DNA of 42,958 bases from Synergistales bacterium (GCA_016927765.1 JAFGMB010000236.1:1-42958), one strand, 5' to 3'; counted from the first letter of the stretch, positions 9,976-42,703 are shown. The notes: generated by a model from the letters alone, not told the origin. Made by a program: numbers and translations.

Positions 9976-10015
9976 CCCGGACTTACCTGGTCAGGTTGCA
10001 CTAATATCAGCTGAA

Positions 10016-10060
10016 GCAAAGAGAGGCAGGGTGATCACCCTGCCTCTCTTTGCTGATTTT
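10016..10060. terminator. bidirectional GC-rich hairpin terminator between convergent genes
   Basis: GCAAAGAGAGGCAGGGTGATCACCCTGCCTCTCTTTGC is a perfect 17-bp stem, followed by TGATTTT on the + strand. Confidence 0.75.
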
Positions 10061-10123: not shown

Positions 10124-11026
10124 TTAATTCGATATCCTCTTTCTCCGATGGTGAAAGCAAACCGGCTTTTTCCCCCTGATCGAGAGGATCAGAAGACCTG
10201 TAAAGATCAGCATGATCCCTGCAAGTACAGGTCCGGTCACATCCTCCCCCAGAAGGAATATCCCAAGACATGAAGCGGTCAGGGGTTCTGAAAGGGTAAG
10301 GGTGTATGCCGTGGAAATCTTTATCATTGTTATTCCCAGGGCAAATAGTACATAGGGAAGGGCTGTTGCCATAAGGCTGAGATGGCTCACCACCAGGGCA
10401 CCTCCCTGAGAGAAAAACCAGGAAAGGTCCCGAAAGAGAAGGACCGGTGAAATGATCACGCTGCCCAGGAGCAGCATCATGGCTGCCTTTTCAATTGAGC
10501 TTCTGGAATCGGGGAGCATCTTCATTGAAGAACCAGCAATGGCCCATGAAAACCCTGCCCCAAGAGCAAGAAGCACCCCCGTAAATTCTATGCCTATCTC
10601 TCCGGAAGGCAATGCCAGAAGGGCACATCCTGTTACCGCAAGGATCGTAGCGAGGTACCATTTGCGATCGATCTGCTCATGAAACAACACTTTTCCCAGG
10701 ATGCCTGCAATTATGGGTGCACTTCCTATGGTTATCATGGTCCCCACGGCAACACCTGTCTTCAGAAGAGCAGCGAAGAAAAATACCTGGTAAAGTCCCA
10801 TCCCGGCAGCTGAACCCAGGGCAGCTTCCCAGGGCCATGGACCTCGAAGTATCCTGAGTCCATTTCCCGGAAGGTCCAGAACCAGAAGGAACAGACCCCC
10901 GAAGAGGATGCGTAAAAAACCCAGGGCCAGTGGATCAGTCCCGGGAGGGGCAAAGAACTGGGCCGTCCCGGTGGTACCCCAAAGAACAGCTGCGGTAATG
11001 ACATATAGATATCCTCTATTTATGAT
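10124..11026 (-). CDS. EamA/DMT-family transporter (10-TM exporter type), probable non-canonical ATC/ATA start
   Basis: The tracked ORF 10124..10801 continues in frame upstream as (I)INRGYLYVITAAVLWGTTGTAQFF..., a typical EamA TM1. There is no ATG, GTG or TTG in that frame. GGAGG at 11036..11032 lies 5 nt before ATC 11026. The resulting 300 aa matches the usual family size. Confidence 0.7.
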   Translation of the reverse strand: MINRGYLYVITAAVLWGTTGTAQFFAPPGTDPLALGFLRILFGGLFLLVLDLPGNGLRILRGPWPWEAALGSAAGMGLYQVFFFAALLKTGVAVGTMITIGSAPIIAGILGKVLFHEQIDRKWYLATILAVTGCALLALPSGEIGIEFTGVLLALGAGFSWAIAGSSMKMLPDSRSSIEKAAMMLLLGSVIISPVLLFRDLSWFFSQGGALVVSHLSLMATALPYVLFALGITMIKISTAYTLTLSEPLTASCLGIFLLGEDVTGPVLAGIMLIFTGLLILSIRGKKPVCFHHRRKRISN

Positions 11027-11102
11027 CTTCTCCTCCTTGAGTTATCTTTCCGGCTTCCAGGGGAAAATTCTTCAAAAGTAATTATATCCCGACTGATGAT
11101 TT

Positions 11103-11129
11103 GGGGAGGAGGGTGGGGAGCCCTCCTCC
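11103..11129. other. GC-rich hairpin between small ORF A and the EamA gene
   Basis: GGAGGAGGG, a 7-nt loop, CCCTCCTCC. There is no U-tract on either strand. A related GGGAGGG/CCCTCCC hairpin sits in the paralogous region at 13156. Confidence 0.4.
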
Positions 11130-11353
11130 TGAGAGAGAAATAGCCCAAAGGCTGAGAAATGTGCCTCCACCAACAAAGGTCTTCCCGGTTTTTCACCAGT
11201 TAATCCGAACATCCTTTCACTTGTACCTGGATGGTGAAGATTATAAAAACGGCCTTTGTTCATCAGAACCATATTCTATTATAGAGAGGCTTGCTGAGAA
11301 ACATCGATCCACCAAAGAAAAAGCAAAACTTACAGAGATGAAAAGACTCTTCT

Positions 11354-11452
11354 TCACACTTTTCGAAATCTTGAAATGTAAGCTCCAAATAAAACACAAC
11401 CACACAGAAAAAACGCTAAACCTATTACTATCCCTAATTCTATCAGGGACAT
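11354..11452 (-). CDS. small hydrophobic peptide A (32 aa): MSLIELGIVIGLAFFLCGCVLFGAYISRFRKV
   Basis: This is below the ORF-track cutoff. AAAGGGGA lies 9-10 nt upstream of the ATG. It is paralogous to peptide B at 13232..13315, with synonymous differences. A GATAAT -10 box at 11536..11531 has the same spacing as in copy B. Confidence 0.5.
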   Translation of the reverse strand: MSLIELGIVIGLAFFLCGCVLFGAYISRFRKV

Positions 11453-11652
11453 TTCCCCATATCCCCTTTCAGGTTTTCAACAAAACCTCTTCCGGGAAAC
11501 CAGCAAAAGGAATATTGTTTCTACTTCAGAATTATCGGCAGGTCCAATTGGATAATCATCATTACCGAACATCAAAAAAGACCCGGAAGTAACCAGGGTA
11601 TTTGTTTTTGATAAACAATAAATGTATTATTTATTAAAAGAGGGGCGGTGAA

Positions 11653-12840
11653 ATGGTCATGCTTGAAAAATACGCTCAGGAGATCTCTGACACTACTGCA
11701 AAGATCATTGGATACGGCGTCCTGGTCACTGACAGGGATGGGATCGTCATAGGCAGCAGTGATCCTGAAAGAATGGGTCAGTCAATATATGAAGTACCTG
11801 AAGTGATAAGTTCCAGGAAAGGTTATATCGTCACCGAAGAGGAGGCCGAAAGGGTTAAAAATACTAAAGCAGGAGTAACCTACCCCATTGAGGATAGTGA
11901 TGGACATATCATAGGGACCATAGCCATCACGGGAGACCCTGACAAAGTTGATCCTTTTGCTCTTATCGTCCGGAAACAGGCTGAAATGTACCTGAGGGAA
12001 AAAGCTATTCTTGAAAATTCCCTTTACCGGGAAAAAACCCTTCAGAACATTATCAAGGACATCCTGGCCCTGGATCCCAGGGTTACAGGGAAAGCCTCTC
12101 TTGCTGAGAAATTAAGGGAATTCGGCTACACTGAAAGAAAGCCTTACATTGCGACCTTTCTGGATTACCAGTTCCCGCTGTCTAAAACACTTCTCGGCCA
12201 GGAATCTGTGCTTCATAGCAGGGCCCTATCTCTAACCAGAAGTGCCTTCCGGAATGACAATGACATTTCCGTAGGTATAGGGGGAAATTCAATCCTTATT
12301 TTTCATGCCTTGACCGAAAATGACACTGACCCGAAGAATTCTTCCAGTTTATTATCTGAAAAATGCAACTTCCTGCAGAAACAGATGGCAACCCACAAGA
12401 TCTCTGCTTCCTTCGGGATAGGTTCCCCCGTTTCAGATCTTGACGGGTGGCACACTTCCTATTCCGAGGCACGGGAGGTCCTTGAACGAGGAAAGATCTT
12501 CCACCCCTCCAGGACGATCTTCTCCATCTCGGAACATCGTTTCCATGAACTGATCGCCACCACTAAAAGGGAGACCCGGGAGCATTTTGTAAGAAAATAT
12601 TTAATGGGACTTGAAAAACAGAAGGATTCCAGGGAATTGAAGGAAACCATTCAGAGCTGGTGTGAAAACAGTTTCTCCGGGAAAGATACCGCGGAAGCCA
12701 TGCACATTCACAGGAATACGCTTCAATACAGGATAAGAAAGCTCGAACACCTCTATGGGTTCAGCATGAGGGATTTCACCCGCATGATGGAACTGTACCT
12801 GGCCCTCCAGCTGGAAAAACTTTCCCTTCATCAAAAATAA
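11653..12840 (+). CDS. CdaR/PucR-family transcriptional regulator (sugar-diacid-recognition-like N-domain plus C-terminal PucR HTH), copy 1
   Basis: The N-terminus is MLEKYAQEI...GYGVLVTDRDGIVIGSSDPERMGQ and the C-terminus is DTAEAMHIHRNTLQYRIRKLE, which is the PucR HTH signature. Confidence 0.85.
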   Translation: MVMLEKYAQEISDTTAKIIGYGVLVTDRDGIVIGSSDPERMGQSIYEVPEVISSRKGYIVTEEEAERVKNTKAGVTYPIEDSDGHIIGTIAITGDPDKVDPFALIVRKQAEMYLREKAILENSLYREKTLQNIIKDILALDPRVTGKASLAEKLREFGYTERKPYIATFLDYQFPLSKTLLGQESVLHSRALSLTRSAFRNDNDISVGIGGNSILIFHALTENDTDPKNSSSLLSEKCNFLQKQMATHKISASFGIGSPVSDLDGWHTSYSEAREVLERGKIFHPSRTIFSISEHRFHELIATTKRETREHFVRKYLMGLEKQKDSRELKETIQSWCENSFSGKDTAEAMHIHRNTLQYRIRKLEHLYGFSMRDFTRMMELYLALQLEKLSLHQK

Positions 12841-13155
12841 TGTTGATCCAGCCAGAGTGGCCTGTTCATCTACCCTGAGATATTGAGTTGCTTAGAGGAC
12901 TAGTGATCTGAAAGGACTCCTCATAAATGTTCATGGGGATGAATGGACAGGTGGAGACAAGAAAATCTCACGGGAAAAAAGAAAGATCCGCCTTCTGGAA
13001 GAGGGAAAGACCCGGAAAACCTTCTTACAGGATCGACTTTACGATAAGCAGAGATTTATGAAGGAAGCCCCTGTCCTTTTGTTGTTCCATGCAGTTTATC
13101 CCAGAAGAATAGGGATTTATTGTGCATAGTGACTATATGAAATACCCAATGAGGT

Positions 13156-13198
13156 GACAGGGGAGGGTTTGGGGCCCCTCCCCTGTCAAGTAGTTTTT
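13156..13198 (+). terminator. hairpin terminator downstream of CdaR copy 1; also lies 45 nt past peptide B on the opposite strand
   Basis: GACAGGGGAGGG, an 8-nt loop, CCCTCCCCTGTC, then AAGTAGTTTTT. Confidence 0.55.
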
Positions 13199-13231
13199 CT
13201 CAAAGGATCAAGAAAAGTCAGTTAAAGTAGT

Positions 13232-13315
13232 TCAATTCTTTTTAAGTCCGAAAGTGTAGGACCCATAGATCAATACAACTAATCCTATAGTCGATACCCA
13301 CTCTATCATAGACAT
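13232..13315 (-). CDS. small hydrophobic peptide B (27 aa): MSMIEWVSTIGLVVLIYGSYTFGLKKN
   Basis: This is below the ORF-track cutoff. AAAGGAGAG lies 9 nt upstream of the ATG, and a TATAAT -10 box is at 13399..13394. It shares MS(L/M)IE..IGL..G..FG and a basic tail with peptide A. Confidence 0.5.
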   Translation of the reverse strand: MSMIEWVSTIGLVVLIYGSYTFGLKKN

Positions 13316-13522
13316 TGTTTCATCTCTCCTTTCAGCATTCTGGAAAACCTTTTTTCAGAACCTGTCGAAAATCCCTATCTCTTACAGTTCAGAATTATAG
13401 ACAAGCCAAAGATCATATTCATCGTATATGGCGTTAGAAAAAATGGATTTAAGAAATGAATTTATTTGTACTTGGTGCCTAAAAAGTGTATCCTTTCCCT
13501 GGAGAAAGGCGGTGGAACACCC

Positions 13523-14710
13523 ATGCTTGAAAAATACGCACAGGAAATGGCTGACTCCACGTCAAGGATCATCGGTCATCATGTTCATATAACCGACAAG
13601 GACGGACTGGTCATTGGAACAAGCAAACCAGAAAGGTTGGGCCATGTTCTTTTTGAGGTACCCCAGGTAGTCCGATCCCGAAAAGGATGCTTAATAAGTG
13701 AGGAAGAGGCTCAGAAATTACCTGACACCCTTGCTGGAGCAACCTATCCCATATACGGTTTAGATGGGCAGATAGCAGGAGCCATTTGCATTCTTGGAGA
13801 TCCTGAAAAGGTAAACTGTTTTGCTCTTATCGTCCAGAAACAGGCAGAGATGTACCTCAGGGAGATGGCCTTCCAGGAAAATGCCCTGTACCAGGAAAGG
13901 ACCATCCAGGCACTGTTGAAGGATATACTGGCTTTCGACCCCAGGATCGCCCCGGCAGAACCTCTTTTGCGAAAGGCCACGGAGTTCGGCTATGAGCCGA
14001 ACAGGAGATATGTTGCAATTTTCATGGACTACCAGTTTTCATCTACTGATATCCCTGACAGGAACAAACCTGTTCTTCACAGTCGGACGCTGTCAATTGT
14101 GAGAAGCATTTTCCAGGGTAAGAATGATATGTCTGCCGGCATCAGGGAAAATGCCATCCTTATCTTCCACGCTTTGGGAGAAGAAAGAATTGAAACAGAA
14201 ACTGAAATGAAAGCATTGTCGGAGAAATGCGGGGGCCTTCAGGGCCAATTGAAAAACCACGATATTTCTGCTTCCTTCGGGATCGGCTCTCCAGTTTCAG
14301 ACCTTGGCGGATGCAAGACATCCTATACCGAGGCCAGGGGAGTTCTTGAAAGGGGCAGGATATTCTACCCTTCCAGGACTATCTTTTCTATATGGGAAAA
14401 CCGCTTTCATGAACTCATAGCCTCGACAGGCGAGATCCCCCGGATCGCTTTTGTCGCTGACCGCTTAGCCAGTCTGAACTCCCAGAAGGATTCAATGGAA
14501 TTGAAAGAAACCATCCAGAGCTGGTGTCAGAATAATTTCTCTGTCCAGGATACAGCAAGGGTTCTGCATATCCACAGGAATACCCTTTATTACAGGATCC
14601 ATAAGATCGAAAATCTATATGATTGTTCCATGAGAAATTTTACCCGGATGATGGAACTTTACCTGGCCCTGAATTTGGAAAAGATAGAACTCTCGAGATC
14701 CTCCATGTGA
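13523..14710 (+). CDS. CdaR/PucR-family transcriptional regulator, copy 2 (clearly related to copy 1 in an unquantified by-eye alignment)
   Basis: The N-terminus is MLEKYAQEM... and the C-terminus is DTARVLHIHRNTLYYRIHKIE. ATG 13523 is preferred over the tracked TTG 13466. Confidence 0.85.
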   Translation: MLEKYAQEMADSTSRIIGHHVHITDKDGLVIGTSKPERLGHVLFEVPQVVRSRKGCLISEEEAQKLPDTLAGATYPIYGLDGQIAGAICILGDPEKVNCFALIVQKQAEMYLREMAFQENALYQERTIQALLKDILAFDPRIAPAEPLLRKATEFGYEPNRRYVAIFMDYQFSSTDIPDRNKPVLHSRTLSIVRSIFQGKNDMSAGIRENAILIFHALGEERIETETEMKALSEKCGGLQGQLKNHDISASFGIGSPVSDLGGCKTSYTEARGVLERGRIFYPSRTIFSIWENRFHELIASTGEIPRIAFVADRLASLNSQKDSMELKETIQSWCQNNFSVQDTARVLHIHRNTLYYRIHKIENLYDCSMRNFTRMMELYLALNLEKIELSRSSM

Positions 14711-14727: not shown

Positions 14728-14772
14728 TTATAAGAGAATATACTTGCGCACGCAAGTATATTCTCTTATAAT
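14728..14772. promoter_or_regulatory. perfect 21+21 bp palindrome (2-nt centre) embedding a TTGCGC-N17-TATAAT promoter; putative MarR operator
   Basis: TTATAAGAGAATATACTTGCG-CA-CGCAAGTATATTCTCTTATAA, with every arm position checked by hand. The -35 box is at 14744..14749 and the -10 box at 14767..14772. Confidence 0.6.
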
Positions 14773-14800
14773 GATCGAACACACAAGTATCTTGGAGGTG

Positions 14801-15232
14801 ATGGCCCTGGAAGACACCTGGACTCCGGGAAGGTACATTTCGATGATCAACCGCAAGTGCCAGTTATATCTGGATAGGATCCTTGCCCGTTACGGCCTGG
14901 GAAAGGGACTGTATCTTTCTCTTGTTGAAATTGCAAGGGAAGAGGGCATAAACCAGAGAACCCTGTCAGCAAGAGTTGTCCTGGATGAAGCCTCGGTTAC
15001 CCGCTCTGTCAGGAAACTGGTACAGAGAGATCTTGTGGAAATAATTAAAGATCCTGATGATAGCAGGGCCAAACGCCTTTTTCTCACTCAAACCGGTAGA
15101 AATGCACTTGAAAATGTAAAGGCCCATCTTGATGAATGGGATTCCATGGCCATAGACCATTTTTCAACAACAGAGAGAGAAACTCTTATTAGGCTTCTGA
15201 AAAAGATGGAATCAAACCTGCACTTGAGATAA
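14801..15232 (+). CDS. MarR-family transcriptional regulator
   Basis: The winged-HTH core is INQRTLSARVVLDEASVTRSVRKLVQRDLVEIIKDPDDSRAKRLFLTQTG. The start is uncertain: ATG 14801 has GGAGG only 2 nt upstream, and the tracked TTG 14744 lies inside the promoter. Confidence 0.75.
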   Translation: MALEDTWTPGRYISMINRKCQLYLDRILARYGLGKGLYLSLVEIAREEGINQRTLSARVVLDEASVTRSVRKLVQRDLVEIIKDPDDSRAKRLFLTQTGRNALENVKAHLDEWDSMAIDHFSTTERETLIRLLKKMESNLHLR

Positions 15233-15261
15233 AAAAGATCAAGGGATGGAGTGTGGTTATC

Positions 15262-16554
15262 ATGAATGATAGCTTCAAATTGGGAAGAGATTTTGCAATG
15301 CTTATGGACAGGGAAGATGAACTTGCCGGATACAGGGAACGTTTCTATATCCCCGGGAACGATATCTACATGGATGGTAATTCCCTTGGTTTGGCTTCAA
15401 GGGATGCCGAGAAAAGCCTTTTAAGGGTCCTGGAGGAATGGAAAACCCTCGGTATAAAGGGTTGGCTTGATGCAGAAAATCCATGGTTCTTCATACCGGA
15501 GGACCTGGGGGCAAAAATGGCTGCCCTGGTGGGAGCAAAATCCGAAGAGGTTATCATGACGGGATCCACCACCAGCAATCTCCATTCCCTAGTATCAACC
15601 TTCTACAAACCCTGGGAAGGAAGAACAAGGATCATTGCCGATGAACTCAACTTCCCCTCCGATATATATGCAATCAAAAGCCAGATCATGAATCACAACC
15701 TTGATCCTGAAGACAACCTGATCCTTGTGAAAAGCAGGGACGGCAAATACATCTATGAAGAGGATATTATGGCTGCCATGGATGAATCCGTTTCAATTGC
15801 CCTGCTTCCAGGTGTCCTGTACAGGAGCGGCCAACTTCTGGACATGAAAAGACTCACTGAATATGCCCATAGCAAAGGGATCATTATCGGATTTGACTGC
15901 GCCCATTCTGCAGGATCGGTGCCACATAAACTGCACGACTGCGATGTGGACTTCGCCTTCTGGTGCAGCTACAAGCACCTAAATGGCGGTCCTGGAAGCC
16001 CCGCTTTCCTTTATCTGAACGAAAAGCATTTTGACCGGGAACCCGGTTTGGCCGGATGGTTTGGCTATATCAAGAACAGGCAGTTCGATCTTGCCCTTGA
16101 TTTTCAGCACTCAAGGACTGCCGGAGGTTGGCAGATGGGCACACCATGCATTTTTTCCACTGCAGCCCTGGAGGGAGCCCTGAAAATATTCAGAGAGGTG
16201 GGGATCGAAGCGGTCAGAAAAAAATCCCTTAAGCTCACTTCCTATGTTATTTTCCTTGTGGACAATCTCCTTTCAGAAAAACCCTATAACTACTCCATAG
16301 GGACCCCCCGCGAAGAGGAACGTCGGGGCGGACATGTAGCGGTGGAACACAAAGAAGAAGCATGGAGGATCTGCTGTGCCCTCAAGGCTCGGGGAATAAT
16401 CCCTGATTTCAGGCCGGATTCTGTGATCAGGATCGCCCCAGTGGCCCTGTACAACACCTTCACCGAAGTTTGGGATGTGATACAGGCGCTGAAAGAGATC
16501 ATAGACAACAGGGAATTTGAGGCTTTCAGCAAAACCAGGGATGCCGTTTCCTGA
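15262..16554 (+). CDS. kynU: kynureninase (L-kynurenine hydrolase; PLP)
   Basis: The motifs YMDGNSLGL, DFAFWCSYKHLNGGPGSPAFLY (the kynureninase PLP-lysine signature) and the roughly 430-aa length all fit. ATG 15262 is preferred over GTG 15253. Confidence 0.85.
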   Translation: MNDSFKLGRDFAMLMDREDELAGYRERFYIPGNDIYMDGNSLGLASRDAEKSLLRVLEEWKTLGIKGWLDAENPWFFIPEDLGAKMAALVGAKSEEVIMTGSTTSNLHSLVSTFYKPWEGRTRIIADELNFPSDIYAIKSQIMNHNLDPEDNLILVKSRDGKYIYEEDIMAAMDESVSIALLPGVLYRSGQLLDMKRLTEYAHSKGIIIGFDCAHSAGSVPHKLHDCDVDFAFWCSYKHLNGGPGSPAFLYLNEKHFDREPGLAGWFGYIKNRQFDLALDFQHSRTAGGWQMGTPCIFSTAALEGALKIFREVGIEAVRKKSLKLTSYVIFLVDNLLSEKPYNYSIGTPREEERRGGHVAVEHKEEAWRICCALKARGIIPDFRPDSVIRIAPVALYNTFTEVWDVIQALKEIIDNREFEAFSKTRDAVS

Positions 16555-17716: not shown

Positions 17717-17758
17717 AATAAGAACAGGCGAGGGAAGCTTCCCTCGCCTGTTCTTATT
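17717..17758. terminator. bidirectional perfect palindromic hairpin between convergent genes
   Basis: AATAAGAACAGGCGAGGGAAGCTTCCCTCGCCTGTTCTTATT is a 42-nt perfect palindrome. Confidence 0.7.
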
Positions 17759-21382: not shown

Positions 21383-21426
21383 AGCACATAGGGGGGCGGA
21401 TAACTCCGCCCCCCTATGTGCTTTTT
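21383..21426. terminator. bidirectional 18-bp-stem terminator between convergent genes
   Basis: AGCACATAGGGGGGCGGA-TAAC-TCCGCCCCCCTATGTGCT, then TTTT. Confidence 0.8.
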
Positions 21427-27715: not shown

Positions 27716-27753
27716 CTCTGTTAGAGATACTTTTGGGAATTACCCTGAATGAT

Positions 27754-27788
27754 CCAGGCGAGGGGAATCCCCTCGCCTGGAAGTTTTT
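27754..27788. terminator. hairpin terminator between convergent genes
   Basis: CCAGGCGAGGGG-AAT-CCCCTCGCCTGG, then AAGTTTTT. Confidence 0.75.
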
Positions 27789-37214: not shown

Positions 37215-37257
37215 ATTACAGGGGAGAAGGATCTCCTTGATCCTTCCCCCCTGTAAT
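37215..37257. terminator. long hairpin terminator between trpA and the convergent gene
   Basis: ATTACAGGGGAGAAGGATC-TCCTT-GATCCTTCCCCCCTGTAAT is a 19-bp stem with one mismatch. Confidence 0.7.
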
Positions 37258-42650: not shown

Positions 42651-42703
42651 TTTACAGGGCATCTTTCCAACCGGGGGCCGGATCTTTCCGGTCCCCGGGT
42701 TCA

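Follow-up and report, generated by a model that had tools for sequence, protein, structure and literature searches.

The window analyzed here, by which we mean the whole 42,958-nucleotide stretch JAFGMB010000236.1 from a Synergistales bacterium (GCA_016927765.1), contains a tandem module in which two paralogous regulators of the CdaR/PucR type, regulators A and B, are each divergent to a micro open reading frame (micro-ORF) encoding a short hydrophobic peptide (Table 1). Sequence identity between the two regulators is 60% over 390 amino acids (aa), and the domains Diacid_rec, GGDEF_2 and HTH_30, which make up the CdaR/PucR architecture, were detected above the Pfam cutoffs in both; the tandem of paralogous regulators put forward in a preliminary description of this DNA is thereby upheld. 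The micro-ORFs proposed at that stage were also verified, in position as well as in translation.

Table 1. Features of the duplicated module and its surroundings (positions counted from the first letter of the window; nt, nucleotides; dG, folding free energy; PWM, position weight matrix)
Feature	Position	Strand	Description
EamA/DMT transporter	10124..11026	-	Pfam EamA E=5e-36; candidate start ATC (11026) or ATA (11023) after AAGGAGGAG
Hairpin A	11105..11129	-	GGAGGAGGG-CTCCCCA-CCCTCCTCC, dG about -18 kcal/mol, no T-tail; in the spacer between micro-ORF A and EamA
Micro-ORF A	11354..11452	-	32 aa, MSLIELGIVIGLAFFLCGCVLFGAYISRFRKV; A subtype, RFRKV tail
Shine-Dalgarno, micro-ORF A	11462..11468	-	AAGGGGA within CTGAAAGGGGAT, about 9 nt before ATG
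Candidate -10 box, micro-ORF A	11531..11536	-	GATAAT, 79 nt before ATG
Operator candidate, regulator A promoter	11598..11622	+	GTATTTGTTTTTGATAAACAATAAA (TTGTTT-N5-AAACAA), PWM 23.9 bits
Regulator A, CdaR/PucR-type	11653..12840	+	Pfam Diacid_rec, GGDEF_2, HTH_30; NCBIfam CdaR match below curated cutoff
Spacer B, non-coding	12841..13154	.	From regulator A stop to hairpin B
Weak candidate operator-like site	13116..13140	-	Just downstream of hairpin B, PWM 12.2 bits
Hairpin B	13155..13188	.	GC-rich, about 45 nt past micro-ORF B stop, dG about -29 kcal/mol; T-run on + strand
Micro-ORF B	13232..13315	-	27 aa, MSMIEWVSTIGLVVLIYGSYTFGLKKN; B subtype, orphan copy without downstream gene
Shine-Dalgarno, micro-ORF B	13324..13331	-	AAGGAGAG
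Candidate -10 box, micro-ORF B	13394..13399	-	TATAAT, 79 nt before ATG
Operator candidate, regulator B promoter	13462..13486	+	TTATTTGTACTTGGTGCCTAAAAAG, PWM 32.1 bits
Regulator B, CdaR/PucR-type	13523..14710	+	Diacid_rec, GGDEF_2, HTH_30; followed by MarR regulator and kynureninase

Relatives of the module were then considered in 20 related loci (L numbers below), sampled via the regulator family. Including the pair in the window, 14 copies of the micro-ORF were found on at least 10 contigs, the 12 additional ones, from related Synergistales/Acetomicrobium contigs, lying at the same position, on the strand opposite the regulator and approximately 200 nt from its start. The check on which the preliminary description had staked its call, namely the presence of homologous micro-ORFs beside orthologous regulators, was thus run, and such micro-ORFs are present in the related loci with substitutions that respect the reading frame. 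Three subtypes can be distinguished. Subtype A (32 aa, ending in RFRKV) occurs in the window and in L011, L006, L005 and L004, the orthologues in the latter four being exactly 32 codons long. Subtype B (26-27 aa, with a KKN or KKK tail) occurs in the window, L011, L006, L004, L007 (where it is cut by the contig end), L001 and L002; the last two, an Acetomicrobium hydrogeniformans metagenome-assembled genome and a 2.95-Mb Synergistales chromosome, respectively, are single-copy genomes. Subtype C' (25 aa, M[SA]KKEW...VNM) was found in L012, L016, L017 and L018. When a hidden Markov model (HMM) built from B-type peptides only was used to rank the 4829 small ORFs of all loci and the window, every unrelated ORF came after the syntenic A and C' ORFs, with E=0.004 for micro-ORF A of the window against E=1.8 for the first unrelated ORF. 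This ranking indicates that the similarity among the three subtypes goes beyond chance, and the family would appear to be a new one, known at present from Acetomicrobium-like Synergistales only.

Two further kinds of small ORF were noted. An ORF in L003, L008 and L010 (MQTTYRWIILVIGKRAKINFATKKAREIA) was considered as a homologue and rejected, having neither a Shine-Dalgarno sequence nor similarity to the family. In addition, window A, window B and L004 have an out-of-frame mini-ORF of five codons (ATG xxx AAx TGT Cxx TGA; 11458..11444 and 13321..13307 (-) in the window), which begins in the spacer that follows the Shine-Dalgarno sequence and runs across the start of the micro-ORF. As it is not kept in L011B, L001 and L016, it is probably incidental.

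Substitution patterns point strongly to protein-level selection on the micro-ORFs, which we take with high confidence to be real genes. Pairwise ratios of nonsynonymous to synonymous substitution rates (dN/dS), calculated by the Nei-Gojobori method, were 0.04-0.24 for B pairs, in which synonymous sites are saturated, and 0.27-0.56 for the six A pairs, with values of about 0.3 for most. Differences between copies fall mainly in the third codon position (for example [3,0,13] across the three positions for L011B versus L004B, and also [4,2,13]), and the codon for Ser19 is TCC in the window versus AGT or AGC elsewhere, which is a switch of codon family. Micro-ORF lengths are only 99, 84, 81 and 78 nt, every indel is in frame, and the homologous stop position is occupied by any of the three stop codons, TGA, TAG and TAA. 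Moreover, the 5' untranslated region (5'UTR) and the 3' spacer around the micro-ORF are far more diverged than the encoded peptide. The synonymous differences between copies A and B on which the first description relied (Ser TCC/TCT, Glu GAA/GAG, Gly GGT/GGA) had been quoted correctly, and its conclusion that selection acts on the peptide rather than on the RNA is borne out by dN/dS values well below 1 and by the excess of third-position changes.

The gene, which the first description had put forward as unannotated, has never been called: the peptides belong to no Pfam or NCBIfam family and are missing from protein collections. An exact look-up of 10 peptide variants in a collection of approximately 15 billion predicted proteins found none of them, and a profile of the two window peptides had 0 matches among 1.84 billion representative proteins. 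Six variants compared with Pfam and NCBIfam gave no meaningful match, the best being DUF485 at E=0.013, below the cutoff, and a tblastn search of the peptides against plasmids and phages returned nothing real.

Regarding the peptide itself, AlphaFold2 modeled peptide A as one continuous helix spanning residues 3-31 (mean predicted local distance difference test score 90.6). The hydrophobic core comprises 19-20 residues, with maximal Kyte-Doolittle values over 19 residues of 2.1-2.6 in subtype A and 2.0-2.4 in subtype C'. Conserved features include an initial M-S/A, E5(-W6) and small residues at positions 11, 18 and 23, with G11, G18 and G23 recurring on a single face of the helix, which suggests that this face may mediate helix-helix packing. 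The C-termini are variable (KKN, KAK, KK, RFRKV, VNM). In subtypes A and B, the flanks carry charges of -1 (E) at the N-terminal side and +2 to +3 (K/R) at the C-terminal side; subtype C' (M[SA]KKEW...AAVNM) shows the inverse, with +1 (KKE) at the N-terminal side and no charge in the C-terminal flank, a pattern that would predict an inverted or undefined membrane topology. The product is likely a single-helix, single-pass membrane peptide of 25-32 residues, insertion into the membrane being predicted from the modeled helix and its hydrophobicity.

Signals for expression were found to be conserved together with the reading frame. All 14 copies have a Shine-Dalgarno sequence of the AAGGAG type at 7-10 nt from the ATG, and a CTGAAAGGAGAG-type motif is kept upstream of each. 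The conserved motif described earlier around the ribosome-binding site and start is indeed shared by copies A and B, but the form common to both is CTGAAAGGnGAnATGnnnnAATGTC: copy B reads CAATGTC instead of AAATGTC. The spacing of exactly 79 nt between the -10 box and the ATG was verified in both window copies. A -10 hexamer (TATAAT, TATACT or GATAAT) is present upstream of all 14 copies at 74-82 nt from the ATG, mostly 79, and this conserved spacing would imply a 5'UTR of constant length, roughly 70 nt.

Downstream of the micro-ORF, a homologous GC-rich hairpin is present in all 14 loci (dG -14 to -29 kcal/mol). Nine core pairs are 100% paired in the 12 sequences compared, and compensatory changes occur at at least five positions, such as A:T in 6 versus G:C in 6 sequences, in addition to swaps of G:C for T:A and of G:C for A:T. 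The block around hairpin A is highly conserved (TATTTCTCTCTC-hairpin-AAATCATC..ATATAATTACTTCTGAA). The hairpin follows the stop codon after 37-56 nt in subtypes B and C' and after 211-221 nt in subtype A, and its tail ranges from T7 (L014) through T4-5 (L016, L018, L013, L006B) to none (window A). Elsewhere in the window, near-perfect palindromic hairpins were observed at seven gene ends (10015..10054, 14730..14769, 17718..17757, 21383..21422, 27747..27786, 37216..37255 and 42660..42699), with dG of -24 to -39 kcal/mol and mostly without a consistent T-tail. Termination in the source genome seems to depend on long GC-rich stems. As the micro-ORF hairpin belongs to the same class and its T-tails are likewise inconsistent, we regard it as an ordinary terminator-type element. 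Hairpin B was classed as terminator-like on the + strand, and it probably terminates transcription from both sides, that of micro-ORF B as well as that of regulator A. RNAalifold applied to six copies identified the 3' hairpin as the sole conserved structure, with no antiterminator pairing, and a search of Rfam returned nothing at gathering thresholds in the whole window and nothing at E<=1 in 10900..13600, which gives no support to a known riboswitch or small RNA.

We then focused on the promoters of the regulators. Approximately 40-60 nt upstream of each CdaR start codon lies a palindromic operator candidate, TATTTGTGC-N5-GCACAAA, the half-sites of which covary among loci (TTGTGC/GCACAA, TTATGC/GCATAA, TTGTTT/AAACAA). 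Scanning the window with the corresponding PWM gave just 3 matches above 12 bits, versus 0.75 expected in shuffled sequence, and showed the palindrome to be specific to regulator promoters. Stronger equivalents of the weak site beyond hairpin B are found in related loci (L011 3614(-), 22.7 bits; L011 5477(-), 17.3 bits; L006 2597(-); L012 3601(-)), and in single-copy loci such equivalents precede the EamA promoter. Since the micro-ORF is divergent from a CdaR regulator with an operator-bearing promoter, it is likely a member of the CdaR regulon, a reading of the promoter layout that we hold to be somewhat more probable than its opposite. Apart from this, more distant CdaR paralogues (L001 1383, L002 1376, L012 1415) carry a related TTTGTT-N7-AACAAA site.

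A conserved gene cluster of CdaR, MarR, kynureninase and YitT/DUF2179 occurs in anaerobic Synergistales; it was noted at 14744..16554 of the window and in L012, L013, L016 and L018. The best NCBIfam match of the MarR protein is BilQ-like and below the cutoff, and the kynureninase passes its NCBIfam equivalog cutoff. A genuine kynureninase in such surroundings hints that the regulon substrate, and with it the EamA cargo, might be kynurenine or an aromatic amino-acid derivative.

As for the EamA gene, the earlier statement that copy A continues into an EamA exporter holds in that the exporter gene lies downstream on the same strand, but a 327-nt spacer with the strong hairpin A separates the two. 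The same arrangement of peptide upstream of EamA on one strand is seen in subtype A, in subtype B (L001, L002) and in subtype C' (L012, L016-18), and EamA is directly downstream in every single-copy genome that has the peptide. In several loci (L012, L001, L014), a weaker copy of the operator-like site lies just past the hairpin, ahead of a TATAAT box and the ribosome-binding site of EamA, from which it follows that EamA probably has its own regulated promoter. In that case, the micro-ORF would be a separate short unit between two divergent regulon genes. The operator-like site lies downstream of the hairpin in subtype B, L001, L002, L012 and L014, and upstream of it in copy A, where an operator-like site (AATATGGTTCTGATGAACAAAGG) and a TATAAT box were noted at 11240..11279 (-); the switched order indicates that the EamA leader of the A lineage has been rearranged and is about 200 nt longer.

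The start of EamA in the window is itself unusual. There is no ATG, GTG or TTG start before residue 85, and the frame opens after a TAA stop; the start region (11018..11041, -) reads AAGGAGGAG-AAG-ATC-ATA-AAT, followed by the conserved N-terminus INRGYLYVITAAVLWGTTGTAQ. This region is kept in L006 (~2377) and L011 (~3390), and other lineages have a normal ATG, which suggests that EamA may be initiated at a non-canonical AUC or AUA in the lineage with the duplicated module. The idea that the peptide is a partial duplication of the first transmembrane (TM) segment of EamA, prompted by a CTGAAAGGA ribosome-binding motif directly before EamA in the outgroup L003, was rejected, as a peptide HMM gave negative scores against all EamA N-termini.

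In a neighbour-joining tree of the regulators, A and B form sister clades, joined next by L001/L002/L012 and then by L016/L018/L013/L014, with L008 outside. The tandem module thus arose by duplication within this lineage, long enough ago for the identity of the paralogues to have dropped to 60%, and the duplicated segment comprised micro-ORF, hairpin, divergent promoter region and regulator. The ancestral order, to judge from the related loci, was EamA <- peptide | CdaR -> MarR -> kynureninase; L012, L013, L016 and L018 show it in full, apart from the micro-ORF deletion in L013 described below, and L014 has EamA and CdaR without micro-ORF, MarR or kynureninase. After duplication, pair A would have retained EamA, and pair B the MarR-kynureninase genes together with an ancestral-looking peptide. 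It had been proposed that copy B lost its downstream gene. This must be revised: the 391-nt spacer is without an EamA remnant by tblastn or blastn, and the duplication more probably excluded EamA, so that copy B would never have carried it. An 89-aa ORF called in this spacer in L011 was rejected as a conserved gene. Copy B is without a downstream gene in the window, L011, L006 and L004, and it is there that purifying selection is strongest; in addition, regulator B orthologues are 90-94% identical versus 71-85% for regulator A orthologues from the same related contigs.

Based on these results, the micro-ORF would be transcribed divergently from the CdaR-type regulator, in one regulon with EamA, as a compact unit of its own: a -10 box some 79 nt ahead of the ATG and a 5'UTR of roughly 70 nt with a strong Shine-Dalgarno sequence precede the ORF, and a GC-rich terminator-type hairpin closes the unit. 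The peptide would then act in trans within the membrane, where the co-regulated EamA exporter would have it as a small partner or modulator, following the logic of KdpF, AcrZ and MntS. A trans-acting small membrane protein co-regulated with an EamA exporter fits the evidence best. The argument for action in trans, and not merely as a cis leader, is that purifying selection is strongest on the orphan copy B, which has been retained in four diverged genomes; EamA is proposed as the likeliest target because the peptide is directly upstream of it in all single-copy genomes having the peptide. Overall, a new family of single-pass membrane peptides within a CdaR regulon, with EamA as probable partner, is our best explanation, to which we give a probability of roughly 0.5; EamA as the target, taken by itself, is a tentative assignment with somewhat less than an even chance.

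A class of small single-TM proteins that cooperate with transporters is well established; it includes KdpF, a 29-aa protein whose gene belongs to the kdp operon for the K+ transporter KdpABC of E. coli (PMC10723866). The micro-ORF peptides resemble KdpF in their length of about 30 aa, their single hydrophobic helix, their position immediately upstream of a transporter gene on the same strand, and in having long been missed by annotation. kdpF is the first gene of the kdp operon. KdpF is co-transcribed with its transporter and is a stoichiometric subunit, whereas a terminator-type hairpin and a probable separate promoter precede EamA here; no sequence similarity to KdpF was found, and the micro-ORF peptide is kept as an orphan in copy B and has been lost in L013. 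AcrZ, MntS and MgtS provide a second comparison, as they are small, mostly single-TM (MntS is not membrane-embedded), trans-acting and in the same regulon as the transporter that they modulate. As their genes need not be linked to that of the target, an orphan such as copy B would fit this pattern. They differ in being enterobacterial proteins of 31-49 aa without homology to the peptides described here, controlled by regulators such as MarA/Rob/SoxS, MntR and PhoP and not by one of the CdaR type; moreover, the interaction with a transporter is only proposed for the micro-ORF peptide. By analogy, the peptide behaves like trans-acting small membrane regulators of transporters, and would represent a new small-protein family within that established kind. 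To our knowledge, no small-protein subunit of a DMT/EamA exporter has been described. Our literature searches, in a library that is incomplete, found nothing relevant on EamA or CdaR with small proteins, no small-protein partner of EamA, and no report of such a partner for DMT/EamA exporters or CdaR regulons.

Several observations weigh against this interpretation. Peptide and EamA may be co-regulated rather than co-transcribed, as a terminator-type hairpin and an operator-like site lie between them, and the linkage is not obligatory, copy B having no EamA in cis. Relative to L018 (255..710), L013 (3212..3498) has cleanly lost about 150 nt, which comprise the entire micro-ORF, its Shine-Dalgarno sequence and the greater part of the 5'UTR; promoter, hairpin and EamA are retained. 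The same promoter, followed by a canonical terminator (CCGAGGAGG...CCTCCTCGG + T7), precedes EamA in L014 (3678..4000) with no micro-ORF, and this unit of about 190 nt would be either an ORF-less RNA or a decayed copy. EamA and CdaR are also found without micro-ORF in the outgroup L003/L008, where a CCTGAAAGGA ribosome-binding motif lies directly before EamA. Strict co-occurrence and a shared operon with the transporter, as for KdpF, were therefore not observed (hairpin, operator-like site, orphan B, L013, L014, L003). Furthermore, searches of Pfam and NCBIfam and the profile search revealed no sequence relationship to any known small protein, the B-type cores are marginal (Kyte-Doolittle maxima over 19 residues of 1.3-1.5), and the inverted charges of subtype C' speak against a fixed topology. 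This charge flip and the fact that peptide and EamA can occur apart (copy B, L013, L014) are the main caveats, and they keep another membrane target or the regulator pathway alive.

The preliminary description had left the peptide as a possible toxin, transporter accessory or signaling partner, and the present evidence narrows this choice without settling it. A trans-acting membrane peptide with a target other than EamA is the alternative that we take most seriously, even if we judge it rather unlikely. The peptide could be a feedback or signaling partner within the CdaR regulon, acting for instance on YitT or on the second EamA of related loci, or it could address the paired regulator itself, each regulator paralogue having kept its own peptide. 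It is peptide and regulator, and not peptide and EamA, that were duplicated and retained as a unit; the orphan peptide B (dN/dS 0.04-0.24) and regulator B are the most conserved members, and L013 shows an EamA that manages without the peptide in cis. Such a role is without precedent in the literature searched, the CdaR-type regulators have no membrane segment or known peptide-binding role (Pfam domains only), and EamA lies directly downstream in all single-copy genomes with the peptide. A cis-acting leader peptide, an upstream ORF whose translation would control the downstream hairpin and thereby attenuate EamA transcription or translation, would account for an ORF ahead of a terminator-type hairpin preceding a transporter gene, an arrangement that recalls the attenuator leaders TnaC, BmrB and ErmCL, in which a transporter or enzyme gene is preceded by a short ORF and a terminator-like hairpin. 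The canonical T7 tail of the L014 hairpin and the L013 promoter still fused to the hairpin-EamA region after deletion of the ORF can be read in the same way. Nevertheless, the peptide is conserved along its hydrophobic length, with variable C-termini and neither a C-terminal arrest motif nor a regulatory codon run; copy B, which has no downstream gene, is under the strongest selection on its amino acids; the distance from stop to hairpin varies between subtypes; RNAalifold found no conserved antiterminator pairing; and an operator-like site with a -10 box separates hairpin from EamA in several loci. A leader peptide is accordingly held to be improbable.

We attach an equally low likelihood to a type-I-toxin-like or membrane-damaging peptide, silent until the regulator induces it, with EamA either unrelated or protective. 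The size of 25-32 aa, the single hydrophobic helix and the basic tail are those of toxins such as Fst, TisB, Ldr and Ibs/Sho, which often have a charged C-terminal tail, and a 5'UTR of about 70 nt with conserved length would suit such a gene; subtype C', however, has no basic tail. The antisense RNA antitoxin and the translation-blocking mRNA fold of these systems were not found at the micro-ORFs: no promoter-like site lies opposite the ORFs and Rfam gave nothing at E<=1, the absence of a small RNA being unprovable from sequence alone, and RNAalifold on the six copies indicated no conserved structure that sequesters the Shine-Dalgarno sequence, which is strong, exposed and conserved. The sole convergent transcript, that of regulator A, is parted from micro-ORF B by the bidirectional hairpin. 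In addition, the micro-ORFs have a dedicated neighboring transcription factor and occupy one stable syntenic position, instead of being scattered, mobile or multicopy, and the tblastn search found no plasmid or phage homologues. Thus, the micro-ORF peptide fails the tested features of both type I toxins and attenuator leader peptides. Finally, the ORFs might be no genes at all, that is, chance frames in conserved regulatory DNA or RNA, in line with a region that is a conserved divergent promoter region and with peptides present in no protein database searched. We consider this extremely improbable in view of frame-respecting substitutions, saturated synonymous sites with low dN, in-frame indels, the Ser codon-family switch, conserved Shine-Dalgarno spacing, and a 5'UTR and 3' spacer that diverge far more than the peptide.

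Altogether, the peptide family described here comes from Synergistales, an understudied anaerobic phylum, and is well supported yet wholly unannotated, in keeping with the systematic failure of gene callers to recover conserved genes of 25-32 codons. The locus amounts to a natural experiment, as it offers a paralogous peptide-regulator pair, an orphan peptide, a clean deletion in L013 and an outgroup without the gene. On a more speculative note, and with rather long odds, the family could provide the first small-protein partner of a DMT/EamA exporter, or a membrane peptide in one-to-one feedback with CdaR, in which a dedicated peptide was duplicated together with its regulator and the pairs diverged in specificity. 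If the peptide does modulate EamA, the paradigm of small proteins that tune transporters would be extended to the DMT superfamily.

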